A stretch of 35,528 bases of DNA from Chiloscyllium plagiosum (Eukaryota). This document shows, piece after piece, positions 1 through 35,528 of the stretch (position 1 is its first letter; every line of letters begins with the position of its first letter). Location: contig NC_057760.1 in NCBI RefSeq assembly GCF_004010195.1, positions 3,737,707 to 3,773,234 of the forward strand, written 5' to 3'. The notes beneath the pieces were generated by a model, which saw only the letters and a list, made by a program, of their open reading frames with translations, did not search any database and was not told the origin of the DNA. The translations under genes were made by a program, and so were the position numbers.

Positions 1-228
1 TCCACTCCACCCTCTCCTCCCTGACCTATCACCTTCATCTCCTCCCCCACTGACCTATTGTACTCTATGCGACTCTATCCCCATCCCCACCCTCCTCTAG
101 CTTATCTCTCCACGCTTCAGGCTCTCTGCCTTTATTCCTGATGAAGGGCTTTTGCCCGAAACGTCGATTTCGAAGCTCCTCGGATGCTGCCTGAATTGCT
201 GTGCTCTTCCAGCACCACTGATCCAGAA
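1..228 (+). mobile_element. Penelope-like element 3' end/pLTR, family A (runs off the window start)
   Basis: C/T-rich tract, hammerhead core, then GATGCTGCCTGAA..TGCTGTGCTCTTCCAGCA. The same 3' module follows the GIY-YIG remnant at 28130-28261. Near-identical inverted copy at 13515-13717. Confidence 0.8.
134..169 (+). ncRNA. Minimal type I hammerhead ribozyme motif (family A), intact core
   Basis: CTGATGA(138-144)-A-GGGC-TTTT-GCCC-GAAAC-GTC; predicted cleavage after C165; helix III is the palindrome ACGT. Confidence 0.8.
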
Positions 229-527
229 GATAGCTATCACCATTGTTAACAGCTAACTCGAGAATGCAACTTTAAAAAAAAGGGTTTTGTGATTTACACA
301 TGAAAGAAGTGAAATTATAACTGTATTCTAACAGATGAAAGGCTTAACAGATAGTCAATTTTTCAATGTATAATTTCAGTTACATCACACTGCAAATTTT
401 TGCTATAAATTCTGTGTTACGATCGAGCCCTCCACTATCACCTGATGAAGGAGCGTCGCTCCGAAAGCTAGTGTGCTTCCAATTAAACCTGTTGGACTAT
501 AACCTGGTGTTGTGTGATTTTTAACTA
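229..527 (+). mobile_element. PLE-type terminal repeat, family B
   Basis: Homologous to both arms of 5330-6532 and to the elements at 21835 and 26440; contains a hammerhead core. Confidence 0.7.
439..473 (+). ncRNA. Minimal hammerhead ribozyme motif (family B), intact core
   Basis: CAC-CTGATGA(442-448)-A-GGAGC-GTC-GCTCC-GAAAG-CTA-GTG; helix I CAC/GTG; helix III palindrome AGCT. Confidence 0.8.
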
Positions 528-1159
528 ATTATTTATGATATTTTAAGTTATTTGTCAACAGTTAGTTTTAAAATTATGCTCTGTACACCAAGTTTATGTC
601 ACTGATATTAAATATATGAGCCATAACTTTTATGCTATTTGAACATGCCGGGAATCAGGGCTATTTTTGACTCCTCGCTTCACAAAGGCCTGAGGCGAGC
701 CAACATTTCAAATTTTCTTGGAGGTCGTCAATTAACAGGTCACCCATGTTCACCATCTAAATAAGTAACTCCCTTAGAGAAGGAGGCCAATTGGCCACAA
801 ACGTTTGGGGGAAACATTGTAAGATTGTTTAGTTACTATTTTATTCTCTTTTGATTGTAGAAGCTAAAGTTGTAGAAAGCAATGAGAGTGTTATCAGAGG
901 AATGGAATTTACAGCTGCAATAATTGGAATGCAGAAGTTAACCTAACAGAATCACTCCAAAGGACTTTGGGTAAAGGTGATTCACCACATTACTACCTAA
1001 CGCAATAAGTTTCAAAAGCAAGAAATGACTTCATTCCTGACTCCCCCATGAAACTGTGGGGAAAGCATTTCGCAGAAATTGCATGTTTTAAAGGCAGTGT
1101 TAACATGTTAAGTTTAGACTGACCAGAGTATAATAATTATCTAGCTAATGATCATACAA

Positions 1160-1637
1160 CATGACACCCCCAATTCCTATACTCAGTGTTGTGAGCAATG
1201 AAGGCAAGAGTGCTAAATGTCTTCTTAACCACTTTATCTACCCGTGAAACAACTTTCAAAACTATGTGCTTGAATACCTAAATCTCTCTATCTGACAACA
1301 CTATCCCCGACCCTACCATTAACTGTATAAGTTCTACTGTTGTTTGTCTTACCAAAATGCAACACCTCACATTTATCTAAATTAAACTCCATCTACCACT
1401 CCTCACCCTAATGGCTTAATTGAACAAGATCCCTTTGTAATCTCAGATAAGCTTCTTCACTGTCCACTGAACCACAAATATCTGCAAATTTATAACCATG
1501 CTTCCTAAATTCTTATCCAAATCGTTTATATGAATGACAAACAAAGGCAGATCCAGGCACCAATCCCTGCGGAACTCTGCTAGCCATGGGCCTCCAGTCC
1601 AAGAAACAACACTCCAGCACTACTCTTCGTCTCCTAT
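1160..1637 (-). mobile_element. Old CR1 LINE RT fragment
   Basis: Degenerate similarity to the reverse-strand CR1 RT region at 11290-11650. Confidence 0.75.
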
Positions 1638-1796
1638 GGAATCTTGTATGAGGTATGAGAGAGCAGCTAGCAATGTGGAATCGGAGTCAACACCCTCAAG
1701 ATAGGAATGACTACATTTAGAGGGAGAACAAATATTAAGGAAAAGGAATATCTGAGTGTCAGGCAAACCCTTCCATTAAAAACTGAATCCTTGCTT

Positions 1797-2421
1797 TCCT
1801 TGAAAGTGGTATTGCAAGTAGACAGGGTAGTGAAGAAAGCGTTTGGTACGCTTGCCTTTATTGGTCAGTGTATTGAGTGTAGGAGTTGAGAGGTCACGTT
1901 GTGGCTGTTCAGGACATTGGTTAAGCCATTTTTGGAATACTGTGTCCAATCTGGTCTCCCTGCTAGGAAAGATGTTGTGAAACTTGGAAGGGCTCAGAAA
2001 AGATTTACAAGGACGTTGGCGGGTTTGGAGGGTATGAGCTATCGGGAGAGGCTGAGTAGGTTAGAGGGTTGGAGGATGAGGAGTGACCTTACAAAAGTTT
2101 ATAAAATCATGAGACGCATGTATAGAGTTCCCAGATAAGGAAGTCCAAAACTAGAGGGCGTAGGTTTAAGGTGAGAGGGGCAACATTTAAAAGGGACCTA
2201 AGGGGCAGCTGATGCATGTATGGAATAAGCTGTCAGCGGTGGTGGTGGAAGCTGGTACAATTACAACATGTAAAAAGGCATCTGGATGGGTCCATGAATA
2301 GAAAGAATTGAGAGGAATATGGGCCAAATGCCAGCAACTGGGTCTAGATTAATGTAGAATATAGGCATGGATGAGGTGGATTGAAGAGTCTGTTTCTGTG
2401 CTGTACATCTCAAAGACTCTA
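1797..2421 (+). mobile_element. CR1 (HER1-like) LINE, 5'-truncated 3' end
   Basis: ORF pieces VKKAFGTLAFIG, LEYCVQ, KLGRAQKRFTR; 3' tail TCTGTTTCTGTGCTGTACATCTC. Confidence 0.9.
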
Positions 2422-2489
2422 CTGCCTTGTTTGGCTAATAGGTCGGCAAGTCATACAAAGGTAAGAACAGTATCTTACCCCCCCAAAAA

Positions 2490-2750
2490 AACTTGCGTTT
2501 GTGAAGCACCTTTCATAAATAGCTTAACAGATAGTAATGCAATTTTTGAAGTGCATTCACTAATTTAGAGTAGGGCATATGGCAGTCAAGTTGCACACAG
2601 GAAACTCCCACAAACAGCAATGAGCTCACAGGAATGTAGGACTAGCCCAAATCACTGTATAGCCTGCTTTTTGTTGTGTGATAAATATTGCCCAGCGTGC
2701 TGGGAAAATCTCCCCTTGCTCTTTTATATCAACCCAAGGGATTTTGCAAT
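2490..2750 (-). repeat. Old SINE/L2-tail-like repeat
   Basis: Begins with a loose reverse-complement match to the L2-type tail at 4094-4128; highly degenerate. Confidence 0.35.
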
Positions 2751-3075: not shown

Positions 3076-3501
3076 AGGGTGGCATGGTGGCTCAGTGATT
3101 AGCACTGCTGCCTCAGTGCCAGTTTGATTCCAGCCTCGGGCAACTGTCTGTGTGGTGTTTGCACATTCTCTGTGTGGGTTTCCTCCGGGTGCCCTGGTTT
3201 CCTCCCCTAGTCCAAAGATGTCCAGGTTAGGTGAATTGGCAATGCTAAATTTCCCATCGTGTCCAGGGATGTGTAGGTTAGGTGCATTAGTCAGGGGAAA
3301 TATACAATAATAGGGTAGAGAATTCCTGAAGAAGGGCTTATGCCCGAAACATCGATTCTCCTGTTCCTTGGATGCTGCCTGACCTGCTGCGCTTTTCCAG
3401 CAGCTCATTTTCAGTAGAGAATGGTTCTGGATGGTTTAATCTTTGGAGAGTCAGTGTGGACTTGTTGGGCTGAATAGCCTGTTTCTACACTGTAGGGATT
3501 C
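3076..3501 (+). mobile_element. HE1-like V-SINE, interrupted by a PLE mini-insert
   Basis: tRNA-derived head (GGTGGCTCAGTGATTAGCACTGCTGCCTCA..TTTGATTCC), V-domain (GTTTGCACATTCTC..GGGTTTCCTCCGGGTGC..TCCAAAGATGT), CR1-like tail. Confidence 0.85.
3324..3413 (+). mobile_element. 90-bp family A PLE insert consisting mostly of the hammerhead
   Basis: CTGAAGA-A-GGGC-TTAT-GCCC-GAAAC-ATC; flanked by the direct repeat GTAGAGAAT (3315-3323, 3414-3422). Confidence 0.8.
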
Positions 3502-3589
3502 AGTGATTCTTCTGTAACATCTGAGCAAGTTATTTGATTAACACGTCTCAATTTCCTTGGCATTCTGTTTAAAGAGGAGCTCTAAGCCC

Positions 3590-5295: not shown

Positions 5296-5439
5296 GCAAG
5301 ACAAAGCTGCAATAAACTAACTACCACAGATTTACAAAGTTAAAAATCACATGACTTGGCGATGCTGGTGTTGGACTGGGGTGTACAAAGTTAAAAACCA
5401 CACAACACCTGGTTATAGTCCAACAGGTTTATTTGGAAG

Positions 5440-5475
5440 CATTAGCTTTCGGAGCGCTGCTCCTTCATCAGGTGG
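5440..5475 (-). ncRNA. Hammerhead motif (family B)
   Basis: Reverse strand reads CAC-CTGATGA-A-GGAGC-AGC-GCTCC-GAAAG-CTA. Confidence 0.7.
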
Positions 5476-5849
5476 TCGTGGAGTATAAAATTGTAAGACA
5501 GAATTTATGGCAAAAGTTTACAGTGTGATGCAATTGAAATTATATATTGAAAAAGACCTGGATTGCTAAGTCTCTCATCTTTTAGAATGGGTGTGTTGGT
5601 TTCAGTTTTCTTTCAGAACTTTTTTTTAAAATGATATTCTCAAGTGAACATTAACAATAGGTACCATGTCATCTCAGCTAATGCATTGAAGGTGTGAGGT
5701 GCCCTGTGTGAGGCAGTCTGTGCCCCAATGTTCAGACTGATTCTATTTCTAAAAAAGGGATTTACAGAATCTTACATGGATTCATGCAGCTTTTCAGCAA
5801 AATGAAATATAATTCTGCGAGTACAAATTCACCCCACAAACTTATACGT

Positions 5850-6085
5850 ATATGTATGTGTATGCAAGTGGGTGTGTGTGTAGAGGGGTGGGGAGGAAGG
5901 TATGAGAGTGGTGTGAGAGTGTGTGTATGTGTGAGTGTGAGTATAAAGGGGTATACGTTTGTGTGAGAATGCATGTGTGGGTGTGTATATGTGAGCATGT
6001 GAGAGAGAGCTTGTGTAAGAGAGAGGGTCTGCGTGAGAGTATGGGTCTGTAGGAGTGTGTGTGTGTGAGAGAGAGAAAGAGAGGG
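5850..6085. repeat. Degenerate (GT)n/(GA)n microsatellite
   Basis: Alternating GTGT/GAGA runs inside the family B composite. Confidence 0.9.
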
Positions 6086-6157
6086 ATTTACATATGAAAG
6101 AACTTAAACCAACATGGTCATTCTAAAAGATGAGAGACTTAATAAACAATCCAGGCC

Positions 6158-6331
6158 TTCCCCTTAGGTCACTTTTATATCTTTCCCCTCTTACCCTAAA
6201 CTTATGCCCTCTAGTTCTGGACTCCCCCACCCTAGGGAAAAGACTTTGTATATTTATCCTATCCATGCCCCTCATAATTTTGTAAACCTCTATAAGGTCA
6301 CCCTTCAGCGCTGTACATCTCAATGACTCTA
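6158..6331 (-). mobile_element. CR1 fragment inside the family B right arm
   Basis: Encodes LKGDLIEVYKIMRGMDR..DLRG; family B sequence resumes on both sides. Confidence 0.85.
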
Positions 6332-6408
6332 TAATACATAATTTCAGTTGCATCACACTGTAAACATTTGCTATAAATTCTGTGCCATACGATCTTATTC
6401 TCCACAAC

Positions 6409-6443
6409 CACCTGATGAAGGAGCAACACTCCAAAAGCTAGTA
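6409..6443 (+). ncRNA. Decayed hammerhead motif (family B)
   Basis: CTGATGA-A-GGAGCAACACTCC-AAAAG-CTA; catalytic G12 replaced by A. Confidence 0.55.
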
Positions 6444-7987
6444 CTTCCAAATAAACCTGTTGGACTATAACTCGGTGTTGTGTGATTTTTAACTTTGTAC
6501 ACCCCTGTCCAACACTGGCACCTCCGAATTGTTACCACAGGTTTCTTTGGCAATAAATTACACTACATTTAAACAATTTTCAAGGTCATTCTTAACGTGG
6601 TGCAGCGACACAGTCCTTTCGTGTTTTCACACAAAGGAATTTGTTACAATTACAATAGCAACAAAAGGTCAACAAATATAAGTGAGTGACAGACAAGACA
6701 TTAACTGAGGGGTTTATGTGGTGTATAAGTAGAACACAGTAAGTTACAGGGTACAATCCTAAACTGGTGATTTGTCTGTTGTCATGGCCCACTTGGGAAA
6801 ATGTGTCAACTCAAGACCTATTACTTCTGGGCTCACCACAGAAGTTAAAGATTTAATTAAATTGCTCAAACTCCCCAATTTAACTACCTGAAGGACTTGG
6901 GCTAACCAGGTTTCTGTACTTGAACTACTGTTTATTACAAGTAAACCAATTCTGACCACAGCAAAACACAAATATAAATTTTAGGATGGATAGGAGAGAC
7001 TGGTGGATGTAAGAGCTGCTCCTTTTCTGGAGATTGTTTTCAGTACTGGAACTGATTTCCTCAATTTCTTGCAGCAATAATTACTATTTTTATAAGTTTT
7101 TGCCTTTTTTTAGAACTTTAGAAAAAAAATCAAAAACGACAATACTTTAAACAGAAGGAAAGAGAGAGAGAGTAAGAGTTTCAGGAGAGACCACGTGGGA
7201 GATCGGAGAACGTCTGTAGAATTCATCAAAAAGCAATCAACAGAGAGCTCTACTAGGTGGAGCTCTAATCTCCTCCTTAAACCCTTCACATATATGCTTA
7301 CACAGACAAAAGACATGGATGCTGTGGGCAGAGGAAACAATATTGTGGAAAGACAGCTCAATAGCACCAGTTCTGTTTCTTTCAGGTCCTTCAGATCTCT
7401 GATCTTTGTAATGTTCTCAGTTATTTGCTGTAAACAAAATGGGGTTGGGGTGCTGGTGTTGACACATTAACTGTTTCAGTTTCTTAGTCGCTAGTTAGAG
7501 GCCACAGCTCATATCAAATAATGGGAGAGAATAGCTAGCTATCTTTCAGTCCTCACTTCCATTAGTGCAGAGAGAGAAAAGAGGAGATGTTGTCTCTGTG
7601 GTCTGGAGACATTTTGCTCTGTATTGCCAACACACAAGCTGTCCACCAACTTAGGAGCCATTCAGAGAATTGTTGTCATGTTGATGACTCCTGGCCCATT
7701 CAACTGGATCTCATCAAAAACCAAGTCAACAGGTTGTCTCTGGGTGACATTTGATCTGAACATACACTCATGGTGCCATTGGATCAAAGAAAGAAACATT
7801 ATAAAAATATAAAAATAACTCTCAGTGAGTTCCAGTTATTTGCTTTTAAAAGTGCCAGATCTCCTACCGAAATCCTTGTGTTTTTTTTTTCTCTAATTTT
7901 GATCCACAATCTAAACTAGTGCTAAATAAAAAGATATGGGTCAGAGACTTATTGAGGCCTGAACAGTTTGGGTTATGGTGAGAATGG

Positions 7988-10962: not shown

Positions 10963-11286
10963 NNNNNNNNNNNNNNNNNNNNNNNNNNNNNNNNNNNNNN
11001 NNNNNNNNNNNNNNNNNNNNNNNNNNNNNNNNNNNNNNNNNNNNNNNNNNNNNNNNNNNNNNNNNNNNNNNNNNNNNNNNNNNNNNNNNNNNNNNNNNNN
11101 NNNNNNNNNNNNNNNNNNNNNNNNNNNNNNNNNNNNNNNNNNNNNNNNNNNNNNNNNNNNNNNNNNNNNNNNNNNNNNNNNNNNNNNNNNNNNNNNNNNN
11201 NNNNNNNNNNNNNNNNNNNNNNNNNNNNNNNNNNNNNNNNNNNNNNNNNNNNNNNNNNNNNNNNNNNNNNNNNNNNNNNNNNNNNN
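10963..11286. other. Assembly gap
   Basis: Run of N. Confidence 1.
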
Positions 11287-11566: not shown

Positions 11567-11863
11567 GCACCAATCCTTGTGGCGCTCACTGGTCACAGGC
11601 CTCCAGTCTGAAAAACAACCCTACACCACCACCCTCTGACTTCTACCTTTGAGCCAGTTCTGTATCCAATTGGCTAGTTTTCCCTGTGTTCCATGTGATC
11701 TAACCTTGCCAATCGCACCGATCCTTGTGGCACTCCATTGGTCACAGGCCTCCAGTCTGAAAAACAACCCTCCAGCACCACCCTCTGACTTCTACCTTTG
11801 AGCCAATTCTGTATCCAATTGGCTAGTTTTCCCTGTGTTCCATGTGATCTAACCTTGCCAATC
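11567..11863. repeat. Tandem duplication of ~148 bp inside CR1 RT
   Basis: Units 11567-11714 and 11715-11863 (GCACC.ATCCTTGTGGC...CCTTGCCAATC). Confidence 0.9.
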
Positions 11864-12696
11864 AGTCTCCCATGGGGAAACTTGTCAAACACCTTAGTGA
11901 AGTCCATATAGATCGCATCTACCACTCTGCCCTCATCAATCCTCTTTGTGACTTCTTCGAAAAACTCAATCAAGTTTGTGAGACATGATTTCCCACGCAC
12001 AAAGCCATGTTGACTATCCCTAATCAGTCCTTGCCTTTCCAAATATATGTACATCCTGTCCCTCAGGATTCCTTCCAACAACTTGCCCACCACCGACGTC
12101 ATGCTCACTGGTCTATCTGGTCTATAGTTCCCTAGCATGTCCTTACCACCCTTCTTAAACAGTGGCACCACATTAGCCAACCTCCAGTCTTCCGGCACCT
12201 CACCTGTGACAATCGATGATACAAATATCTCAACAAGAGGCCCAGCAATCACTTCTCTAGCTTCCCACAGAGTTCTAGGGTACATCTGATCAGGTCCTGG
12301 GGTTTTATCCACCTTTATGCATTTCAAGACATCCAGCACTTCCTCCTCTGTAATATGGACATTTTTCAAGATATCACCTTCTATTTCCCTGCATTCCATA
12401 TCTTCCATATCCTTTTTCACAGTAAATACTGATGCAAAATGTTCGTTTAGTATCTCCCCCATTTTCTGCAGCTCCACACAAAGGCTGCCTTGCTGATCTT
12501 TGAGGGGCCCTATTCTCTCCCTAGTTACCCATTTGTCCTTAATGTATTTGTAAAACCCTTTGGATTCTCCTTAATTCTATTTACAAAGGCTATCTCATGT
12601 GCCCTTTTTGCCCTCCTAATTTCCCTCTTAAGTATACTCCTACTCCTTTATACTCTTGTAAGGATTCACTCAATCTATCCTGACTATACCTTACAT

Positions 12697-13514
12697 AGTT
12701 TTGGAAAGAATTATGAGGGATAGGATTTATGACTATTTGGCAAAGCATAGTGTGATTAAAGGCAGTCAGCATGGCTTTGTGAGGGGTAGGTCATGCCTCA
12801 CAAATCTTATTGAGTTCTTTGAGGAGGTGTCAAGACAGGTCAACAACGGTCGAGCAGTGGATGTGGTGTATATGGATTTCAGCAAGGCATTTGATAAGGT
12901 TCCCCATGGTAGGCTCATTCATAAAGTCAGGAAGTATGGGATACTGGGAGATTTAGCTATCTGGATTCCGAATTGGCTGGCTGACAGAAGACAGAGAGTG
13001 GTTGTAGATGGGAAGTATTCTGCCTGGAGGACAGTGTTGAGTGGGGTCCCGCAGGGCTCTGTTCTTGGGCCTCTGCTCTTTGTAGTTTTTATAAATGACT
13101 TGGATGAGGAGGATGAGGGGTGGGTTAGGAAATTTGCAGATGACACAAAGGTTGGAGGTGCTGTCGATAGTATAGAGGGCTACTGCAGGCTGCAGCGCGA
13201 CATAGACAGGATGCAGAGCTGGGCTGAGAAATGGCAGATGGAGTTCAAGGAGTTCAACCTGGATAAATGCAAAGTGATGCATTTTGGAAGGTCGAACTGG
13301 AATGCTGAATATAGGATTAAAGATAGGATTCTTGGCAGTGTGGAGGAATAGAAGGATCTGGGTGTGCAAGTACATAGCTCCCTCAAAGTTCCACCCAAGT
13401 GGATAGGGTTGTAAAAAAAGCATATGGTGTTTTGGCTTTCATTAACAGGGGGATTGAGTTCAAGAGCCACGAGGTTTTGCTGCAGCTCTACAAGTCCCTG
13501 GTGAGGTAACACTT
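12697..13514 (+). mobile_element. CR1 RT fragment of a different subfamily
   Basis: 216-aa ORF with YMDFSKAFDKV, GVPQGSVLGP, FADDTK; nucleotide sequence diverged from neighbouring CR1 copies. Confidence 0.92.
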
Positions 13515-13717
13515 AGAACTGCAGATGCTGGAAACCAGATTCTGGATCAGTGGTGCTGGAAGAGCACAGCAATTCAGGCAGCATCCGAGGACAGGCAAAA
13601 TCGACGTTTCGGGCAAAAGCCCTTCATCAGGAATAAAGGCAGAGAGCCTGAAGCATGGAGAGATAAGCTAGAGGAGGGTGGGAGTGGGGATAGAGTAACA
13701 TAGAGTACAATAGGTCA
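13515..13717 (-). mobile_element. Family A PLE 3' end
   Basis: Reverse complement of ~51-228 plus terminal CCAGCATCTGCAG. Confidence 0.8.
13599..13634 (-). ncRNA. Minimal hammerhead motif (family A), intact core
   Basis: Reverse strand ATTC-CTGATGA-A-GGGCTTTTGCCC-GAAAC-GTC-GATT, identical to 134-169. Confidence 0.8.
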
Positions 13718-13887
13718 AGTTGGGCTTGTCCACCCTTGGGCAAATTGTAGATGGTCATGTGATAAGGGAATGAGGTATGATGGCGGATAATGAGAGACAT
13801 ATCCCCCATCACTCCTTGTTCCCTAATTCCACTTTCATATCTACTCACCTTGTATCTACCATTTACAGACCTCAGGGACCATGTAGA

Positions 13888-15734: not shown

Positions 15735-15850
15735 GTCCATGGGATGTAGGCAATACTGGTTAGGCCAGCATTTATTACCCATCCTTAATTGTCCCGGAGA
15801 AAATAGGGGTAAGTCGCCATCTTGAACTTCTGCAGTTCCCAAGGTGTAGG
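15735..15850 (-). mobile_element. CR1/L2-type LINE 3' tail fragment
   Basis: Reverse-complement similarity to the tail at ~22900-23020. Confidence 0.55.
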
Positions 15851-15938
15851 AGATTATCAATGTCTAAAGTTTGTGCGAAGATTTGTAGCTTGGGTGCTCG
15901 TTGTTGTGGTTCTGTTCGCCGAGTTGGAAGTTTTTGTT

Positions 15939-15978
15939 GCAAACGTTTCGTGCCCTGGCTAGGCGACATCATCAGTGC
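15939..15978 (-). ncRNA. Hammerhead motif (family C), left arm
   Basis: Reverse strand GCA-CTGATGA-T-GTCGCCTAGCCAGGGCAC-GAAAC-GTT-TGC. Confidence 0.65.
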
Positions 15979-16088
15979 TTGGGAGCCTCCTGCGAAGCGC
16001 TTCTTTGATGTTTCCTCCGGTGTTTATAGTGGTACCACTATAAACACCGGAGGAAACATCAAAGAAGCGCTTCGCAGGAGGCTCCCAA

Positions 16089-16128
16089 GCACTGATGATG
16101 TCGCCTAGCCAGGGGACGAAACGTTTGC
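16089..16128 (+). ncRNA. Hammerhead motif (family C), right arm
   Basis: GCA-CTGATGA(16092-16098)-T-GTCGCCTAGCCAGGGGAC-GAAAC-GTT-TGC; helix I GCA/TGC. Confidence 0.75.
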
Positions 16129-16164
16129 AACAAAAACTTCCAGCTCGGCGAACAGAACCAACTT

Positions 16165-16415
16165 TGTATGGAATGAGCTGCCGGAGGAAGTGGTGGAGGC
16201 TAGGACAACTGCAACATTTAAAAGTCATTTGGAGGGATGTGGGCCGGCTGCTGGCAGGTGGGACTAGATTAGGTTGGGATATCTGGTCGGCATGGACTGA
16301 TGGGTCTGTTTCCGTGCTGTACATCTCTATGACTATATGACTCTGTTACCTGAGTGATAACATTTTCAGGTAGAGGTGGTTCATGTATGGAACGAGCTGC
16401 CAGAGGAAGTGGTTT
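16165..16415 (+). mobile_element. CR1 3' tail plus short CR1 fragment
   Basis: TGGAATGAGCTGCC..GCTGTACATCTCTATGACTATATGACTC; similar start repeated at ~16385. Confidence 0.85.
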
Positions 16416-17955: not shown

Positions 17956-18924
17956 GTGATGTAGGGAACCTTACCTAAGTATGGCAGAGGGGTGCCAGGG
18001 TCAGTAATGTATTCCTTGCCCTAATTTGAATAACATGCAGTTTCACCCTCAGTCAATCCCCAATCAGGACCCCCTTTCGTCCCTTAATCTCTATACTTGA
18101 CCCAAAGCACATAAAAACCCTCTCTGGCTGAAAAGCTGTGACTTCAAGGTACCACTTGAAGTGCTGCTTAGAAATCTTTTCATTTACTTTAAAGTTTCTG
18201 AGTCTTAATTTCTGACTCCTGAACCTGCCTGTGTGCCTTCTTGGCATTTCTTTTCACTGTCTCAAATTGACTTTGATAATTTGAGAGATATAATCTTCTC
18301 CTGATTGGCAATCTCTAAGGATTTAACCTTTTTCTTTAATTCTGTTTTCTGATTGGAAAACCTCAATTTCCTGACTGGCAACCTTTAGGCCATCAAGTTT
18401 CTGTTTTATTTCTGCATTTTCTGACGTAATTCCCCATTTTCTGACTTCATCTCACTTATCTCAGCATGTCTTTGCTTTAATGCAAACTTTGCGAACCAGG
18501 TTTCTGCAAAAAGGCAACAAATTCTCATCATCCTATCTTATTTGAGTGCTCACTTTCCCAAGAAATTTCTAATTGACTGTAACAAACGTTTTAGTGCAAC
18601 AGGTCTTGGAACATCACAAGCTTGCTAATACTCTATCCACTTTGGCAATTTCATATTCAAGCATTCCTTAACAAAGTTCTCCTATTCAGGTTAATTGTTT
18701 GTCATGATTTCAGAGTAAACAATTGAGCCTAATTCAATAATACAAAAATTTAAATGGTCTGATTGAACCTGAAAAAAGTTTTGCAACCTCATCCACCCAC
18801 TTGAATTCTAGACATCGTGTGGGACAGTTGCCCTCTTAATTGAAGTAGCAGGCAGGAGGAAGGGCGTGATGTGTGATGTGAAGGTGTTGTGGGGGTGAAG
18901 GGAGATGTTCGGAGTGAACCATGC

Positions 18925-20420
18925 AATCAAAGAAAGTGCAACACCTGCCTGGTTACTTCTTTCCTCCTCATTATCCAAGCTTCCAGATGAAGCAGTGATT
19001 TACCTGCACTTCACTCAATCTAGTCTACAGTATTCACTGCTCACAATGTGGTCTGCTGTACATTGGGAACATGAAATACAGCCTGGGCGACTACTTTGCA
19101 GAACACGTATGTTCTGCTTGCAAAAATGACTCTGGGCTTCCTGTTGCCTGCCACATCAATACACCACAGTGTTCCAGGCCAATATCTTTGTCTCAAGCTT
19201 GCTTCAGTGCTCCAGGGAAGCTTAGTGCAAGCTGGAAGAACTATATCAGATTTTCTACTTGGGGATTCTGCAGTCTTCTGGATTTAATATTGATTCCAAT
19301 AATTTTGGGACTGTTACAAATCCTTCTGCTAATTAAACCAAACACACAACAAAGCTCACCTTGCCTCATAATCTGTTAAAGTATGAGTGACAGAGAACTC
19401 CCCAAATTCCACTATTTACAGAAAAAAAATCAATTTTATTCTTTAACTCTAAAAGTGAACATTAAACAACAACGTTTACAACTTTAAGCCTCCTTTCTCT
19501 TAAAGGTTTGTTATCTACCTCCAATATGCCGTTCCAATAACCACCCGTATTAAAATAATATCAACTTAACTTTAAAACCAGAAAGCAGCGATTGTCTCCA
19601 GTCTCCTCCTTCCTCTGGATCTCGAGCTATCTGGGTCGTCTTTGGTCTTTTGCTGCAAAGAAGTTTTATATGAAAAAGAGGTCTTTGACTGGCAGTTACT
19701 CTGATGGCAGTTGGTCACTTTCTCTGGCTAACCCTCAAAATGTCTGCTTCTTTACAACGCAAACATTGGATCATCTCATTGATTCGATGTTGGCACAACA
19801 GTAACATTCAAATTCGATTGGGTTTTAGTATCCTGGGGCATAATTTAAATTGTTTGGTTAAATTCAAATGGTTGTCAGCATAGCAACCAAAACTCAGGTA
19901 TTCTGTTCACAGCCAATGTTACATATTTCCAATTTCCCAGTACACTCTGAGATTGCTTGTCAGTCACATGACAGGTGCCTACAAGCTCTCAATGCCAAAC
20001 AGCTTTCACTCTCTCTTAAAGGTACAATACACACCTTCAACTTCATAACAACCTTCTCCCATGTCCTTAGCCCTATGCTCCTGGACACCAGATCTTGACA
20101 TCATTTGGGCTGCTACCACAAATAGCCCATTGTCAGCCACTAATAGTCTCCACTAGCAGATATTGATTCTCCCAGGCTCACCTTTACCCATTCCTTTGCC
20201 CAACTGTTTTATTTTTCTCTCTCTCTCTCTCTGGGCTCCATCCCCAACCATCACTTACTCATCCCTGTTTCCACCCACCCATCTTCAGCATATACAACCT
20301 GTTCCTAGTTATAATAATTTCTTCAGAAGGGTCACTGTACCCAAAATGTTAACTCTTCTTTCTCTCCACAGATGATGCCAGATCTGCTGAGTCTTTCTAG
20401 CAATTTCTGTTTTTGTTTCT
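18925..20420 (+). mobile_element. Old Penelope-like element 3' part (GIY-YIG remnant), split by an insertion
   Basis: From 18999 reads FTCTSLNLVYSIHCSQCGLLYIGNMKYSLGDYFAEH..LPVACH; PLE-type 3' module at ~20320-20420. Confidence 0.8.
19312..20050. mobile_element. Possible solo LTR
   Basis: 739-bp segment bounded by TGTTA...TAACA interrupting the PLE; no clean TSD. Confidence 0.4.
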
Positions 20421-21209: not shown

Positions 21210-21387
21210 CTGAAAATGTGTTGCTGGAAAAGCACAGCAGGTCAGGCAGCATCCAAGGAGCAGGAGAATCAATGTTCATGCCCGAAACGTCAATTCTCCT
21301 GTTCCTTGGATGCTGCCTGACCCGCTGCGCATTGCCAGCAACACATTTTCAGCTCTGACCTCCAGCATCTGCAGTCCTCACTTTCTC
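21210..21387. mobile_element. Family A fold-back element with collapsed centre
   Basis: Inverted arms ~21210-21276/~21286-21352; TSD CTAGGA(C/T)TACTGATA at 21195-21209 and 21388-21402. Confidence 0.85.
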
Positions 21388-22038
21388 CTAGGATTACTGA
21401 TAGAATAATCAACAATGAGAAAGGTTTCAGAGGTGAGGTGAGAGTGATAGTCCTTGATATCAAGGCTGCAATGACTGAATGAGGCATCAAAGAGTCCAAG
21501 CAAAGCTGAAATCAATGGGTAACAGGGAGCAAACTCTCCACTCGATGCAATCATACCTGGCACATAGGAAGATGGTTGTGGTTCTGTGGATCAGTCATCT
21601 AAGCTTCAGGATGTCTCTGCAGAATTCCCCAGGATAGTGTTCTAGGCCCAACCATCTTCAGCTGCTTCACTAGTGACATTCCCACAATCACAAAGTATCA
21701 TAAGGTCAGAAGTGGGACGTTCGCAAGTGATTGCACAATGTTCAGCATCATTCGTGACTCCTCCATGCAGTCCATGTTAAAATGCAACAAGATCTGAATA
21801 ATATCCAGATTTAGACTGACAAGTCACAAGTAAAAATCACACAACACCAGGTTAGAGTCCAACAGATTTAATTGGAAGCACTAGCTTTCGGAGCGCTACT
21901 CCTTCAGCGCTCTGAAAGCTAGTGCTTCCAATTAAACCTGTTGGACTCTAACCTGGTGTTGTGTGATTTTTAACTTTGAGCTGAAAAATGTGTTGCTGGA
22001 AAAGCGCAGCAGGTCAGGCAGCATCCAAGGAGCAGGAG

Positions 22039-22074
22039 AATCGACGTTTCGGGCATAAGCCCTTCTTCAGGAAT
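22039..22074 (-). ncRNA. Hammerhead motif (family A), intact core
   Basis: Reverse strand ATTC-CTGAAGA-A-GGGCTTATGCCC-GAAAC-GTC-GATT. Confidence 0.8.
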
Positions 22075-22084
22075 GCCCTTCCTC

Positions 22085-22120
22085 ATTCCTGAAGAAGGGC
22101 TTATGCCCGAAATGTCGATT
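22085..22120 (+). ncRNA. Hammerhead motif (family A), one helix III change
   Basis: CTGAAGA-A-GGGCTTATGCCC-GAAAT-GTC. Confidence 0.7.
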
Positions 22121-23169
22121 CTCCTGCTCCTTGGATGCTGCCTGACCTGCTGCGCTTTTCCAGCAACACATTTTTCAGCTCTGATCTCCAGCATCCGCAG
22201 TCCTCACTTTCTCCTAGTTGATTTTTAACTTTGTACACCCCAGTCCAACACCAGCATCTCCAAATCAGTCACAAGTAAATTCATGCCACAAAAATGCCAG
22301 GCAGTGACCATCACCACTGCTCCTTGACATTTAATGGTGTTACATTCACTGAATTCCCCACTATCAATATCTTTGGAGTTACCATTGACCAGAAATTCAA
22401 CTGGACTCACCACATACACACAAGGGCTACAAGAGCAGGTCAGAGGCTAGGAGTACTGCTGTGAATAACTCACCTCCTGACTCCCCAAAGCCTATCCATC
22501 TACAAGGCACAAGTCAGGAGTGTGAGGAGATGCTCCCCACTTGCCCTAGATGGGTACAGCTCGAGCAATATTCAAGAAGCTTGAGACCATCCGAGACACA
22601 GCAGACCACTTGATTGGCACTACATCCACAAGCATCTACTCCACTCTACTGAGCATCCACCACCGATGCTCAGTAGCAACATTGTGCACTATCTACAAGA
22701 TGCACTAATGAAACTCACCAGAGATACTTAGATAGCACTTTCAAAACCATGACCATTTCCATCTAGAAGGACAAGGGCAACAGGTACATTGGAACACGAC
22801 TACTTACAAGTTCCTCTCCAAGCTACCCACCATCCTGTCTCGTAAGTGTATCATTTTTCCTTCATTGTTGCTGGGTCAAAACCCTCCCTCACAGGTGAAT
22901 CAACCTACAGCTGGTGGACTGCAACGATTCAAAAGGGCAGCTCACCTCTGCCTTCTCAAGGACAACTGGAAATGAGCAATAAAACGCTAGCCAGCCAATG
23001 ATGCCCATGTCCATGATTAATTTTTTAAAATCTTAACAGAATGACACTTTTTCTGTCTGAAGTACATAAAGACACCACAAACCAAAAACATAATTGTTCT
23101 CAGTGAGGTTGATCACTCAAAAGTCAGGATTACGTGGAGTTCACATTCAGCTGCCAATCATGTTAAAAT

Positions 23170-26439: not shown

Positions 26440-26640
26440 TCATGATTTGGAGATGCCGGTGTTGGACTGGGGTGTACAAAGTTAAAAATCATACAACACC
26501 AGGTTATAGTCCAACAGGTTTAATTGGAAGCACACTAGCTTTCGGAACGACAATCACCTGATGAAGGAGCGTCGCTCTGAAAGCTAGTGTGCTTCCAATT
26601 AAACCTGTTGGACTATAACCTGGTGTTGTGTGATTTTTAA
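26440..26640. mobile_element. Family B fold-back element
   Basis: Inverted arms ~26480-26551/~26571-26642; 14-bp TSD CTGTGTGATTAAAG (26426-26439, 26641-26654). Confidence 0.88.
26555..26589 (+). ncRNA. Hammerhead motif (family B), intact core
   Basis: CAC-CTGATGA-A-GGAGCGTCGCTCT-GAAAG-CTA-GTG. Confidence 0.78.
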
Positions 26641-26832
26641 CTGTGTGATTAAAGGGTGATTTCCAGACAGCAATTTTTTTTCTCACCTCGCATTTTATTT
26701 TGCAAAACACTTTAAAACTTTGCCCTCTGGTTCTTGATCCTTTTGTGAGTGGGAGCAGTTTTTCCCTAACTATTGTGTCCAAAGCCCTCATGTTTTTGAA
26801 AACTTAGATGAAATTTTCCCTTCTTTCCTTCT

Positions 26833-28261
26833 AGTCCTCACATATCACCCCACCAATCTCTGAATCCAACGTATCATGCTCCACCATTTTCGCCACCTGC
26901 AGTCAGACCCCACCACCGAACAGATACAGAGGAACCTCGATTATCCGAATATCAATTATCCGAATTTTGGATTATCTGAAGAAGATCTCAAGGTCCCAAC
27001 AGAAACATTACATCTAAGAGGTGTTTCCAACACTGAATGCACCTTTTGTTTACAGTGACTAAAAATGAACCCGGCTTCCTGAAATGCTGCCGAGAACAGT
27101 CCTGGACATTGATTGGATCTCAGGCACCATCTCCAAATGACTGACTGTCCGCGTGTGCTCTCTCTCTCCCCACACTTTCCCTGGAGTTCTACACAGGGGC
27201 GTACCCTAACACCCCCTTTCCCAGATAATCTCTCCAACATTGTCCTGTACAGGGCAAAGGTGGAACCTGTCAAAAAGTTGCAGTAATGGGTTTTTTGTGT
27301 ATGTGTGTGTGCGTGCGCGCGCGCGCGCAGGGTTGGGGGATGTGCAGGGGGCAGGGTTGGGAGTGGGCGAGGGGGCAGGGTATGGGGAGCAGACTTAACA
27401 GAAGACTCTGAGCCCCAGAGGAGAGGCATTGAATCAATTAACCGAATGATCAATTATTTGAATGAGATAGTGACCGCCCATCTTGTTCAGATAAACGAGG
27501 TTTCTCTGTATATCCTTCCCCATAGGGACCATTCACTCCATGATTCAACCACAGGAAATGCAACACTTTCCCCTACACCTCCCCTCTCACCTTCATTCAA
27601 GGATCTAAATAATCATTTCAAATCCTGCAGATTTGCACCTCATCCAACCTGGTTTACTGCATCCGTTGGTCCCGATGTGGTCTCTTCTACTTCGGAGAGA
27701 CAAAGTGCAGACTCAGGAACCAGTTCACGGAGCATTTGCTCTCTGTATGCCCCAATGAATGCCACCTTCCGGTTGGCAGCCATTTCCAGGCCTCCTTCCA
27801 CTCCCTGGTGACATGTCCATCTTGGGTCTCCTCCACTGTCAAAATAAGGTTACACGTAAACTGGAGGAACATCATCTCCCATTCCATCTTTGGAGCTTAC
27901 AGCCCAATGGCCTTAACATCGATATCACCAGTTTCAAAATCTCCGCACTCCCAACCTTGTCCTATATCCAGACTTCCCTCTCCTCAACCAGATCTAACTT
28001 ATCATCTTCCACCTCACTTTCCCACTGACCAATCACAATAACCCCCTACCCGCATCCACCTATTACCATCCTACCTATCTTTTCCCAGCCACATTCCCTC
28101 CCTCTATTTATTTCCTTTCCCCCTCCTTGGTCCTGATGAAGGGTCCCAACCTGGAACATTGCCTTTCCTGCTCCTACAATGCTGCCTGACCTGCTGTGCC
28201 TTTCCAGCTCCACATTTTATCGACTCATGACTTCCAGCATCTGCAGTCCTTACTATCTCCA
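26833..28261 (+). mobile_element. Penelope-like element 3' part: GIY-YIG remnant plus family A-type 3' module
   Basis: HFRHLQSDPTT; from ~27631 ICTSSNLVYCIRWSRCGLFYFGETKCRLRNQFTEH; then MSILGL..RKLEE..LQPNGLNID; decayed hammerhead at 28133-28160. Confidence 0.88.
26927..27508. mobile_element. Tc1/mariner (Tigger/pogo-like) MITE
   Basis: TIR CAGAGGAACCTCGATTATCCGAA vs CAGAGAAACCTCGTTTATCTGAA; TA duplication (26925-26926, 27509-27510); interrupts the PLE ORF. Confidence 0.85.
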
Positions 28262-29929
28262 GTGTGTGCCACCTTTTTCATAATTGAAGTTCCTCATTCT
28301 TTGAACCATTCTTCTGAACCTTTTCCTTGTGATTTCCTTGGCAAATAGAAATTTTCTCTGGCTTCTGCTTTTCTAATATTTTGTAAATCAGTCCTTTGTA
28401 GGTTGCTCATGATTTAATTAACACAACCTTCATCCAGTCAGGGAGGTTAGACTAGTCTGTGATATTCTCACAGTTGAGCAGCCTAACACGAACCTATGCA
28501 GACTCAAAAAAAAACAGAATTGATTCGACAAGATTTGGAAGGTAAACAGAGTCATCTGTAAAAGGAGAGGAAATGAGGAGAAAATCAGGAAGAAGGTATC
28601 AATATACTTCTTGCGACCGAAAAGCAATCCTGATGAAAATACCACAAATGATGGTATATCCTGTTTTACAATTACACGGCTCGGAATGCTCTGAGTTTGT
28701 TGGAAACATTGCAAAAGTAAGAAAAAATACAATTTAAATGATATAGATCTCCATTTCTTCCCATTCTTTTGAGTTTTTGTGTTTAACAATATTTTGTACT
28801 ACTACATTCCAACCAAAGATAAAGCGTGACCGAGTAAAGTCAGTCAACATTGCACCAAGTGGTACAGAATAGATAGTTCACAATAGTTCACAGGGAGGAC
28901 AACTGAGATTTATGTACAGTTCAAATTAATCACGGTGCCCTTCCCAGTTTCATAAAGTGGTGATTTCAAACATAATATGGCAGAGATAGTTCATAAAAAT
29001 ATATAAAAGTACTGTAGAGTATCACTATTATCTTCGCACAGAAACTGTCATGAAGCCCTCAGAATTATGAAAAACCCACTACAATTTCCTTTGTGAGTGA
29101 CTTCCTAGTGACTGAAAGACTGAGACTCCAGCCATCTATTGTAATTGTGATCTAGCACAAGTCATTGATACATGATTCTGCAATCAATATGCCATATGAT
29201 TTTTTTGATAATTTAACGGGTAAATACAGCAACATTGGAGAAAATTGTCACTTTGAGTAGACGGTAATTGAAAACAGATAGGGCAGAATGCTCCCAGCCT
29301 TTGAATAACGGTGAGAAAGTTGGGAGATCAGAATATTCCCAACATTGAGTACAAAAGTCCCATTTTCCAACCTAGTATTGAATGGAGAGACTATACTGTC
29401 ATTAGTGATGAGAGATCTGTTTTCATAAATCAGCATGCATTAACATTCTCATTAATATATTATTTCATCTCATCAATATGGAAGGTTCCCGTTCTCTCAC
29501 CCACCACTTAGAAACTAGACAGCGACAATTCCCAACATGGAAGTATAGAGGTAACTGGTAAGTCCAGCTGCTTGCTCCTCTGGCCCTCCATCATGGACAG
29601 CAGTCACCAGAGTGTGAGACTATACTCTATGGGCAGCAACTGTGCATACCCCCTCATTTTGCAGTACATCTCGGTGTGTATCAGCAAAGTGAGGTGCAAA
29701 ATTGATGTACCTTGGGCAAATGACAAGAACCGAGCAGGACAGATGTGGACCTCAAGTGCTTGACATGGGTACATGACTGGGCTTCAAAGATGGCAATGGC
29801 ATCAAGATTTCTGGTAGGTCCTGGCAGTAGCCATTGTAGAATATGGGAGAATACAATGAGCCGAGTAAAATAAGAGCATGATACACAGAGCTTAAATTAT
29901 AGATCAGTACAGCACAAGTACAGGCTTTT

Positions 29930-30710: not shown

Positions 30711-30714
30711 TAAG

Positions 30715-31619: not shown

Positions 31620-32820
31620 ACCAATCCAGGCAACATCCAAGTAAACCTCATCTGCACCCTCTCCAAAGCCTCCACATCCTTCCTATAGTGTGGCGACCAG
31701 AACTGCACACAGTGCTCCAAATGTGGTCTGATCAAAATGTTATACAGTTGCAGCATGATTTGCCAACTTTAATACTCACTGCCCTGACTAATGAAGACAA
31801 GCATGTCATATGCATTCTTTATGGCCTTATCCACTTGTGTTGCCACTTTCAGGGAGTTTTGGACTTCAACTTAAAAATCCCTCTAAAGATCATTGACTCC
31901 TAAGGGTCCAGCCATTTACATTTTACTTTCCTCTTGCATTTGACCTCACAAAATAAATCACCTCATTCCATCTGCCATTTCTCCGCCCAACTTTAATATC
32001 CTTCTTCACTATCTACAACTCCACCAACATTCCTGACATCTGCACAACTTATTAATCAGGCTTATTAATAATGTTTTCATCTAAATCATTTATATAAATA
32101 TTTATCAACAAAAGAGATCCAACACTCATTCTTGTGAAACACCACTGGTCACAGACCTCTAGTCAGAAAAACACCCCTTCGCAACTACCTTCTATGGCCA
32201 AATCAATTTTGTATTCAACTTGTCAACTCAACTGGATTCCACGTGATTTAAACTTCTGGACCAGCCTACCATGAGGAGCCTTGTCAATTACTTTAGTAAA
32301 GTCCATGTAGCCAACACTCACTGCCTTACCTTCCTCAATTATCTTCATCACTTCCTCAAAAACTCAATCTCCCCTGCATAAAGCCATGCTGACTATCTGT
32401 CATAACTCCATTCTCTAAATGCAAGTAAATCCTGTCCCCAAGAATCGTTTCCAATAATTTCCCTAACCAGCCCACAGTTTCCTGGATTGTCTTTGTTGCT
32501 GTTCTTTAACAAAGGAACAACATTGGTTATTCTCCATTCTTCTGGAACCTTAACTGTGGTTAAAAAGAATACAGAGATCTCCATCAAGGCCTCAGCAATC
32601 TCCTCCCTTGCCTCCTTCAGTATCCTGGGATAGATACCATCAGGTCCTGGGGACTTGGTACCTTAATATATTTCAACACACCCAATACCACCTTGCCTTT
32701 AATATTGACATGTCTTAGAAAATCAATGAACCTTTCTCTAAACTCACAGTCATCTGTGACTTTCTTAATGATAAATACTCATCCAAAGTACTCATTGAAG
32801 ACCTCACCAACTTCCTCTGG
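31620..32820 (-). mobile_element. Older CR1 RT fragment
   Basis: VPEEWRITNVVPLLK and other decayed RT motifs. Confidence 0.8.
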
Positions 32821-32822
32821 TT

Positions 32823-33561
32823 AGAGTCATAGAGTCATAGAGATGTACAGCATGAAAACAGACCCTTTGATCCAACCCGTCCATGCCGACCAGATATCCC
32901 AACCCAATCTAGTCCTACCTGCCAGAACCTGGCCCATATCCCTCCACACCCTTCCATCCAAATACCTCTTAAATGTTGCAATTGTACCAGCCTCCACCAC
33001 ATCCTCTGGCAGCTCATTCCATACACTGCGTGAAAAAGTTGCCCCTTAGGTCTCTTTTATATCTTTCCCCTCTCACCCTAAACCTATGCCCTCTAGTTCT
33101 GGACTCCCCGACCCCAGGGGAAAGACTTTGTCCATTTATCCTATCCAAGCCCCTCATCATTTTGTAAACCTCTATAAGGTCACCCCTCAGCCTCCGACGC
33201 TCCAGGGAAAACAGCCCCAGCCTGTTCAGCCTCTCCCTGTAGCTCAGATCCTCCAACCCTGGCAACATCCTTGTAAATCTTTTCTGAACCCTTTCAAGTT
33301 TCACAACATCTTTCCAATAGGAAGGAGACCAGAATTGCACGCAATATTCCAATAGGGGCCTAACCAATGTCCTGTACAGCCGCAACATGACCTCCCAACT
33401 CCTGTACTCAATACTCTGACCAATAAAGGAAAGCATACCAAACGCCTTCACTATCTTATCTACCTGCGACTCCACTTTCAAGGAGCTATGAACCTGCACT
33501 CCAAGGTCTCTTTGTTCAGCAACACTCCCTAGGACCTTATCATTAAGTGTATAAGTCCTGC
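32823..33561 (-). mobile_element. Young CR1 3' part
   Basis: ORF 33014-33589 ORF2 C-terminus; repeated TATGACTC tail at 32823-32841. Confidence 0.93.
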
Positions 33562-33564
33562 AGG

Positions 33565-33636
33565 GTGATGGTGGTATGGTGATGAGCATAGCTGCCTTCT
33601 AAGCAGTTGACCTGGGGTCGATTCTTGGCCATTGCA
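33565..33636 (+). pseudogene. tRNA-Gly(TCC)-derived pseudogene
   Basis: 72 nt colinear with vertebrate tRNA-Gly-TCC as recalled (GAGCATAGCTGCCTTC.AAGCAGTTGACC); anticodon now TCT; T-loop reads GTCGATT. Confidence 0.75.
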
Positions 33637-33709
33637 GTGTTGTGGTTTGTAAACAGCCTTTTAAAGGAAAGGCACTGGGATAAATCGAGGAGATAAATCT
33701 TTCTTTTTG

Positions 33710-34290
33710 AGTCAAACAGTCAGGGCAGGCAGGGACAAGGTAGGACTAATAAATTAAACTGCATTTTTTTCAATGCAAGGGGCCTAACAGGGAATGCAGA
33801 TGAACTCAGGGCATGGTTAGAAACATGGGACTGGGATATCATAGCAATTACGGAAACATGGTTCTGGGATGAGCAGAACTGGCAGTTTAATGTTCCAGGA
33901 TACAAATGCGGCAGGAAGGATAGAAAGGGAGGCAAGAGAGGAGGGGGAGTGGCATTTTTGATAAGGGATAGCATCATTTTTGATAAGGGATAGCATTACA
34001 GCTGTACTGAGGGAGGATATTCCCGAAAATACATCCAGGGAAATTATTTGAGTGGACTGAGAAATAAGAAAGGGATGATCACCTTACTGGGATTGTATTA
34101 TAGACCCCCCAATAGTCAGAGGAAAATTGAGAAACAAACTGGTAAGGAGATCTCAGCTATCTGTAAGAATAATAGTGTGGTTATGGTAGGGGATTTTAAC
34201 TTTCCAAACATTGACTGGGACTGCCATAGTGTTAAAAGTTTAGATGGAGAGGAATTTCTTAAGTGTGTGCAAGACAATTTTCTGATTCTA
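33710..34290 (+). mobile_element. CR1 ORF2 apurinic endonuclease fragment
   Basis: FNARGLTG..DIIAITETW, GGGVA, YYRPPN, MVGDFNFPNIDW; 22-bp tandem duplication at 33953-33996. Confidence 0.9.
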
Positions 34291-34414
34291 GTTCTCAACT
34301 TAAATTCCCTCCTTTGTAGATATTGAGGTGAGTTTGGGAAGATAGCATGAGAAAACCTGGGTATGCAGAGAGGAAAACCCTGCCATGAATCTCCTCATAA
34401 TTGACACTTAAAGA

Positions 34415-35528
34415 CATAGAGTCATAGAGATGCACAGCACGGAAACAGACCCTGCAGTCAAACCTGCCCATGCCGACCAGTTATCCCAACCCAATCTAGT
34501 CCCACCTGCCAGCACCCAGCCCATATCCCTCCAAACCCTTCCTATTCATAAACCCATCCAAATGCCTCTTAAATGTTACAATTGTTCCAGCCTCCACCAC
34601 TTCCTCTGGCAGCTCATTCCATATACATACCACCCTCTGCTTGAAAAGGTTGCCCCTTAAGTCTCTTTTATATCTTTCCCCTCTCACCCTAAACCTATGC
34701 CCTCTAGTTCTGGACTCCCCAAACCCAGGGAAAAGACAAAGTTTGAGAGAAGATTTGTAGCTCGGGTGCTCGTTTACTGTGGTTCTGTTCGCCAAGCTGG
34801 GAATTTGTGTTGCAGACGTTTCGTCCCCTGTCTAGGTGACATCCTCAGGGCTTGGGAGCCTCCTGTGAAGCGCTTCTGTGATCTTTCCTCCGGCATTTGT
34901 AGTAGTTTGAATCTAGATCTGTAATCATACTACCAGCAGACAAAGGCAGAATGACGTAAGCGACAGATTCAAACCACTACAAATGCTGGAGGAAAGATCA
35001 CAGAAGCGCTTCACAGGAGGCTCCCAAGCACTGAGGATGTCACCTAGACAAGGGACGAAACATCTGCAACACAAATTCCCAGCTCGGTGAACAGAACCAC
35101 AACAACCAGGGAAAAGACTTTACCTATTTACCCTATCCATGCCCCTCATAATTGTATGCCTCTATAAGGTCACCCCTCAGCCTCCGACGCTCCAGCCTCT
35201 TCAGCCTCTCCCTATAGCTCAAATCCTCCAACCCTGGCAACATCTTTGTAAATCTTTTCTGAACCCTTTCAAGTTTCACAACATGTTTCCGATAGGAAGG
35301 AGACCAGAATTGCACGCAATATTCCAACAGTAGCCTAACCAATGTCCTGTACAGCCGCAACATGACCTCCCAACTCCTGTACTCAATACTCTGACCAATA
35401 AATAAAGCGTACCAAACGCCTTCTTCACTATCCTATCTACCTGTGACTCCACTTTCAAGGAGCTATGAACCTGCACTCCAAGGTCTCTTTGTTCAGCAAC
35501 ACTCCCTAGGACCTTACCATTAAGTGTA
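34415..35528 (-). mobile_element. CR1 3' part interrupted by a family C element
   Basis: Tail at ~34415; LEYCVQFWSP ORF; runs off the window end. Confidence 0.92.
34738..35105. mobile_element. Family C PLE fold-back element with hammerhead motif in each arm
   Basis: Arms 34778-34914/34965-35101; 13-bp TSD CCAGGGAAAAGAC (34725-34737, 35106-35118); cores at 34812-34851 (-) and 35028-35067 (+). Confidence 0.9.

Follow-up and report, generated by a model that had tools for sequence, protein, structure and literature searches.

Head-to-head Penelope-like insertions with hammerhead motifs in a Chiloscyllium plagiosum genomic window: probable one-off, 5'-truncated integration products

[quoted passage not shown] Each of these units is probably a one-off, heavily 5'-truncated insertion made by an ordinary PLE protein of the reverse transcriptase (RT)/GIY-YIG type, and not a unit that copies itself. 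The window is repeat-rich vertebrate DNA, dense in fragments of CR1-type LINEs (long interspersed nuclear elements), and PLE units together with longer copies cover about 11% of it. Units were detected by comparing the window with itself and by a local search for inverted repeats; the seven fully resolved fold-backs all come from this one window. A preliminary description of this DNA had placed them in three unrelated sequence families, and both points stood: all seven were recovered by the self-comparison, and the seeds of families A, B and C gave no BLAST match to one another. Family A comprises the fold-backs at 21210 and 21979, the single-arm copies at 1-228, 3322 and 13502-13740, and an older member at 28129; family B, the fold-backs at 5330, 21835 and 26440 and the single-arm copy at 240-526; and family C, the fold-backs at 15866 and 34738.

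Every unit (7/7) consists of two 5'-truncated pLTR copies arranged head to head as inverted arms; below, the starts of the arms are counted from core base C3 of the hammerhead. In family A, the unit at 21210..21387 (178 bp, tail at the right, 15-bp target site duplication (TSD) with one mismatch) has arms that begin within the hammerhead, at +21 and +12, and therefore holds no complete core, and the unit at 21979..22218 (240 bp, 15-bp TSD) has arms that start at -5 and -14 and complete cores on both strands. The latter is nested in the right arm of the family B unit at 21835..22266, at the tail boundary of this unit, which without the nested insertion measures ~180 bp, has its tail at the right and a 13-bp TSD, and lacks a complete core because its arms begin at +4 and +12. 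The family B unit at 26440..26640 (201 bp, tail at the left, 14-bp TSD) has arm starts at +13 and -8 and a complete core on the plus strand only (26558). The third member of this family is a long fold-back of 1,203 bp (5330..6532, 8-bp TSD) with tails on both arms and arm starts at about -620 and -144: its left arm (5351-~6094, minus strand) begins ~620 nt upstream of the hammerhead and has an intact core at 5471, its right arm (6095-6159 and 6333-6532, plus strand) is split by a CR1 fragment and has a mutated GAAA box, and an extra stub of ~17 nt occupies its left end (5334-5350). In family C, the unit at 15866..16166 is a perfect palindrome without a spacer, centred at 16033/16034, with the tail at the left; both arms begin 58 nt upstream of the core (-58/-58), cores are present on both strands with GUU as the NUH triplet, and the last 6 letters of the right arm match the end of the tail after an apparent internal skip. 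The other family C unit (34738..35105, 368 bp, tail at the left, 13-bp TSD) is inserted in a CR1 copy, has cores on both strands, and its arms differ by ~50 nt at the centre, the left one being the longer (starts at -116 and -68). Besides the long pair at 5330, the inverted repeats found were 15907-16160 (98% identity), 21210-21352 (84%), 21831-21972 (92%), 21978-22181 (95%), 26476-26646 (90%) and 34778-35101 (86%).

TSDs of 8-15 bp, which had been reported for all units except that at 15866, were found in six of the seven (8, 13, 13, 14, 15 and 15 bp; the one at 5330 is 8 bp exact, or 11/12 allowing one mismatch), and none was found at 15866. Such repeats are rare by chance: when 5,000 boundary pairs were drawn at random, exact repeats of at least 8 bp turned up at a rate of 0.0016, and those of at least 13 bp in 0/5,000. 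Each family has two fixed outer ends that lie ~36-40 nt apart, a distance that corresponds to the tail, and five units (21210, 21835, 21979, 26440 and 34738) use one of each, so that the tail is present on a single arm. The earlier picture had a full end on one arm and a shorter inverted copy as the other; the exceptions to the single tail are 5330, with tails at both ends, and 15866, with one full tail and a remnant. The size range of 180-430 bp given before had to be revised, since the unit at 5330 reaches 1,203 bp with its CR1 fragment and the 432 bp of the unit at 21835 include the nested 240-bp unit.

The centres of all seven units in the window differ, and six of the seven are asymmetric; in the preliminary description, unique centres were the mark of one-off truncations, as opposed to a propagating element. 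[quoted passage not shown] The units described here resemble these class II elements in being short, hairpin-forming, abundant and flanked by TSDs, but their arms are unequal retroelement 3' ends, their TSDs range from 8 to 15 bp, and neither a fixed combination of terminal inverted repeat and spacer nor a constant length and centre was seen in the window.

The single-arm copies indicate that the fold-back is only one of the forms in which these sequences are inserted. One and the same subfamily gives rise to both forms: the copy at 240 is 97-98% identical to the arms at 26440, and the copy at 3322 is 94-96% identical to those at 21979. The former (240..526, plus strand) is a tailless family B copy with ~190 nt upstream of an intact core at 442, and the latter (3322..3413, plus strand) is a family A stub of 92 bp, also tailless, with an 8-bp TSD, that begins 4 nt before the core. 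A second subfamily of A is represented by two single-arm copies with intact cores, one tailless with at least 130 nt upstream (1..228, plus strand, core at 138) and the other with a tail and ~110 nt upstream (13502..13740, minus strand). Diagnostic variants of the subfamilies are common to both arms of a unit, and in family C the identity between the arms of a unit (95-98%) exceeds that between units (86-87%).

The three families fit the min-HHR descriptor, i.e., a CUGANGA / GAAA / NUH core with an extra base after A9, a G10.1-C11.1 pair, 4 palindromic nt where helix III would be, and a helix I of 2-3 bp; their previous identification as PLE pLTRs with minimal hammerheads is supported. They share with the ribozymes described in PMC4209133 the core boxes, the extra base between A9 and 10.1, G10.1-C11.1, the palindromic 15.2-16.2 without loop 3 and the short helix I; they differ in being new sequence families with a helix I of only 2-3 bp. 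In family A, 97.6% of the stem cells are paired and double changes were seen at 2/6 pairs, a weak signal given that the nine rows are related. An Rfam scan of the window gave no match to a hammerhead family; the microRNA (miRNA)-like Rfam matches on the palindromes were discarded as sub-threshold hairpin artefacts. The ribozyme region had been thought to lie on both strands of every unit; complete cores on both strands were found in three of the seven (21979, 15866 and 34738), whereas two have one in a single arm (26440 and 5330) and two have none (21210 and 21835). The predicted cost of opening the core is 20.7-61.5 kcal/mol in all seven core-bearing fold-back strands (four units, 5330 excluded) and 1.1-2.5 kcal/mol in three solo copies, so the modelled hammerhead would be buried in the fold-back transcript. 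Since the core is predicted to be buried, the antisense arm of a head-to-head unit is transcribed first from whichever strand, and a dimeric ribozyme needs two sense copies, ribozyme activity inside the fold-backs is unlikely according to these models, and the motif is likely a passenger and not the engine of a new mini-element. Of the 14 arms, none begins where the predicted cleavage product would (+28 in A, +29 in B; the nearest is at +21), no head-to-tail hammerhead array occurs in the window, and RNA ends did not pile up at the predicted cleavage sites in a library of a type that is unable to show such a pile-up.

Insertions with an inverted truncated pLTR, a tail of 30-40 nt and a TSD have been described previously (PMC3846280, Arkhipova et al. 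2013; PMC8557442, Craig et al. 2021), and the units in the window are new sequences of this known pattern. Endonuclease-bearing (EN+) PLEs (Penelope/Poseidon, Neptune, Nematis) share with them the truncated pLTR with an inverted copy, the tail usually at one end, a TSD of ~8-15 bp, the hammerhead in the pLTR, the short partial-tandem stubs and, in longer copies, a GIY-YIG open reading frame (ORF) upstream; what differs here is that both arms are usually shortened to their final 70-230 nt and no ORF separates them, that truncation clusters at the hammerhead, and that the density is very high. Pairs of min-HHRs on opposite strands, 100-700 bp apart, were likewise ascribed to truncated PLEs in Schistosoma (PMC4209133, 2014). 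Metazoan non-LTR retrozymes (PMC7229834) are also short, non-coding, hammerhead-bearing relatives of PLE pLTRs; nevertheless, retrozymes are head-to-tail repeats (bioRxiv 10.64898/2026.07.22.740005; PMC7229834) with a ribozyme in each unit and circular RNAs, in contrast with the head-to-head, variable units found here, often without a complete core. The bioRxiv survey included one chondrichthyan, and literature listings, from which subscription papers were mostly absent, gave nothing specific on shark fold-back PLEs, twin priming or strong-stop products.

The head-to-head geometry, the fixed outer ends, the TSDs, the variable centres and the arm-shared variants were observed directly, and the priming and joining of the arms are inferred with the help of a PLE from the anole, in which nicking and extension of both strands have been seen in vitro, the tail lies between two internal RT start sites, the protein is predicted to be a dimer, and ribozyme cleavage is not needed (PMC11167929, Frangieh et al. 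2024). In the most likely course of events, a dimeric protein would cut the two strands 8-15 nt apart, and from each 3' end a cDNA would be started at one of the two internal sites flanking the tail. Synthesis of the two cDNAs would stop after ~70-230 nt, mostly in or just before the hammerhead hairpin, and their ends would be joined bluntly or through 1-2 matching bases and then filled in. The hammerhead, situated 70-130 nt upstream of the start sites, would for that reason be copied too. Of the two origins that had been suggested for the units, that of an abortive product of PLE integration is supported, and the apparent convergence of three families is better read as one shared mechanism of PLE integration.

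Sequencing reads were compared with positions 1-1100 of the window, which include the single-arm A and B copies and unique DNA; three DNA runs and one RNA run were used (4 of the 24 listed), from two organisms. Between 83,000 and 103,000 DNA contigs were placed per run (96,616 on 1,100 bases in one of them). In run X1 the summed depth, which is not a copy number, was 5.9-7.5 million over the A hammerhead and 4.7-15.7 million over the B hammerhead, compared with 0.5-2.2 million upstream of the hammerheads and 19 in unique DNA. This drop of ~4-10x upstream of the hammerhead indicates that most copies are pLTR-only, although for family A it is confounded by the divergence of subfamilies upstream of 134. 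Among the best 15 of 190 joints, whose counts are lower bounds, those with a strand switch concentrate at 133-135 to 175/178 and at 438-439 to 473/474/480, with another at 360 to 480. In the three DNA runs, the best joints consist of many separate contigs at about 1-2.5x single-copy depth, with no single deep contig. Their coordinates coincide with differences between the reference and the common subfamilies (171-174, 471-472 and 436-438), and for this reason they are probably alignment clip points. What the joints do show is a concentration of centres around the hammerhead, both genome-wide and in another organism, though not that individual centres are identical.

Several observations weigh against one-off insertion by twin priming. 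The clustering of arm starts at the core, where all eight arms of the four small A and B units start within -14 to +21, is unexplained by plain random truncation. The joint 134 to 175 recurs in at least 13, 14 and 27 contigs as well as in 13 reads of RNA, and the joint 439 to 473 in at least 5, 4 and 2 contigs and 3 RNA reads, in both cases from two organisms; centres shared among loci may still be compatible with such joints, and a centre of very high copy number could vanish in short contigs. In family A, the identity between arms (92% for 21210) is no higher than that between units, only seven units are fully resolved, and families B and C have no RT + GIY-YIG parent or coding remnant in the window. 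Finally, self-priming on an antisense template was the preferred explanation for head-to-head junctions in PMC3846280.

This last proposal, in which the hairpin arises by snap-back of a single cDNA or on an antisense template without two independent primings, was made for rotifer elements (PMC3846280) and would suit the perfect palindrome at 15866, whose arms start at the same base. It is an unlikely explanation for the units in general, given the asymmetric centres of the other six and the outer ends at two family-fixed positions, which match the RT start sites mapped in vitro (PMC11167929). Still less likely is that one arm was copied by run-off from RNA already cut by the hammerhead, with the ribozyme setting the centre. 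The joint at 473 does equal the predicted start of the cleavage product in B copies that lack a 2-nt insertion of the reference, and 175 can be reconciled with 166 if clipping is allowed for; however, clipping alone predicts the same coordinates, no arm (0/14) starts at the predicted site, and anole RNA-seq showed no ends there (PMC11167929). The other origin suggested in the preliminary description, an amplifying MITE-like class of ribozyme retroelements whose entire hairpins would be copied in trans, is the most improbable of these alternatives. The very high abundance and the joints that recur in two organisms as well as among RNA reads would agree with it, and non-autonomous PLE derivatives and trans-mobilisation are known; on the other hand, the unique centres, the two coreless units, the ribozyme buried by 21-62 kcal/mol, the lack of head-to-tail arrays and the solo or long sister copies of the same subfamilies all argue against it. 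Moreover, a fresh TSD abuts two different family-fixed ends, which a single run copying a parent hairpin would not readily recreate. A minor propagating subfamily is nonetheless conceivable.

A refinement compatible with one-off insertion by the PLE protein concerns the template. Family B contains a poly(A) signal in its pLTR (482..523, plus strand), with an ATTAAA hexamer at 482-487 (AATAAA in the 5330 subfamily) and a GT-rich region downstream. In the RNA run (X21, a fragmented poly(A) single-cell library of which ~2 in 100 was read, with 5,558 reads placed), 1,014 reads from one sample carry poly(A) behind 499 (458 reads) or 502 (556 reads), 12-15 nt past the hexamer; the 20 genomic bases after these sites contain 3 and 1 A only, which argues against internal priming. 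Both are upstream of the no-tail end (526) as well as of the tail end. Family B RNA is mostly 4-15x sense-biased over 223-481 and reaches at least 270 nt upstream, family A RNA is alike on both strands, and several family B reads carry indels rare in DNA. No poly(A) hexamer was found in families A and C, and narrow searches of the literature, including the accessible parts of PMC6765202 and PMC2377424, found no pLTR poly(A) site. It is conceivable, though we hold it only tentatively, that the stubs are run-off ('strong-stop'-like) cDNAs made from the 5' pLTR copy of the mRNA: with poly(A) cleavage inside the 3' copy, neither RT start site would be left there, so that priming would take place on the 5' copy and end near the RNA 5' end or the hammerhead. 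The used family B sites upstream of both ends, the sense bias and the fall in depth above the hammerhead point in this direction, as do two published findings: RT starts internally, in the initial ~118 nt of the ORF (PMC11167929), and the D. virilis transcript begins within the upstream pLTR (PMC2377424). Against it, the RNA comes from one sample, the poly(A) reads could stem from host transcripts that terminate in fixed copies, a hexamer is missing from A and C, the arm starts span 35 nt, longer copies exist, and the depth drop of A is confounded. If true, run-off would explain why family B copies are so short.

With the same reserve, the stubs might be seen as the fossil record of a retrovirus-like strong-stop step, the pLTR being organised like an LTR. 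In order, it would comprise an RNA start close to the hammerhead, a used poly(A) site that follows the ribozyme cut site by 30 nt, and then the two RT start sites. Priming would be confined to the 5' copy on the mRNA; two run-off cDNAs integrated by a protein dimer would yield mini fold-backs, and full-length copies and pLTRs would need a template jump. The subject touches how PLEs build inverted ends and regenerate their pLTRs; for the regeneration, according to PMC2377424, no mechanism is obvious. With many thousands of such junctions in a single genome, the models of twin priming, snap-back and run-off can be tested by counting. For repeat annotation, it is useful that these units mimic MITEs and miRNA hairpins and that they add repeats forming double-stranded RNA to transcripts.

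The search for parents with RT and GIY-YIG domains, proposed in the preliminary description, was answered in part, with an older A-type relative and none for B or C. An older and longer PLE 3' end (27505..28262, plus strand) runs from a broken GIY-YIG endonuclease remnant (27505-27971) into an A-type pLTR with a tail, whose segment 28129-28260 is 73-83% identical to family A. The remnant had an Atlas score of 0.95 with GIY-YIG clusters (Pfam share ~20%) and 407 phmmer matches at E<=0.001; among ten of these that were scanned, seven contain GIY-YIG, and one (P0135) has RVT_1 and GIY-YIG above the cut-off. The Pfam scan missed the remnant itself and a word-index protein search with it was empty. 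The remnant and its pLTR are an older relative of family A and not its direct parent, and the RT itself is absent from the window; the Cys-rich linker looks, from its sequence, Neptune/Nematis-like according to the description in PMC8557442. For family C the searches with its frame were empty, and family B was searched by Pfam on one frame. Open frames at 21980-22228 (plus strand, A) and 15775-16023 (minus strand, C) run from inside the hammerhead through the tail, like the start of the ORF in the anole element; the word-index protein searches found no homologue of these A and C pLTR-end frames, and Atlas was also empty for the C frame. A second broken GIY-YIG remnant lies at 18736-19306, and ~700 nt further on there is a decayed pLTR-like end (~20040-20410) with a hammerhead-like stem; the two are probably one old PLE split by insertions.

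Pattern scans outside the window gave 0 and 0 matches in prokaryote genomes, 0 in viral contigs and, for family B, 0 in metagenome contigs; three metagenome contig matches of the family A pattern were rejected as chance, since only the 21-25 pattern bases agree.

The arrangement of the copies offers some further details. A family A unit sits exactly at a family B tail boundary (21964-22233), and a B copy (240-526) begins 12 nt after an A copy (1-228); PLE ends are possible preferred insertion targets. Head-to-tail restarts of the pLTR end were seen at 5334-5350 and in a joint that leads from 526 back to 494 through letters of the tail, which suggests template jumps as reverse transcription begins.

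Among the other features of the window, an RVT_1 match at 12662-13348 (E 2.8e-24, Pfam scan) lies in a CR1-type LINE setting. A 149-bp tandem duplication within a CR1 copy was noted at 11567-11863 and at 10963-11286, near an assembly gap of N. A tRNA-like match (33565-33636, plus strand; 32.8 bits, just over the Rfam gathering score) lies beside a CR1 fragment and is perhaps the head of a short interspersed nuclear element. The PLE remnant that begins at 27505 is apparently interrupted by an element of ~580 bp (26927-27508), since protein matches are found at 26831-26956 and again from 27505. This element has imperfect terminal inverted repeats of ~23 bp and TA flanks, as judged by eye, and resembles a MITE of the Tc1/mariner type.

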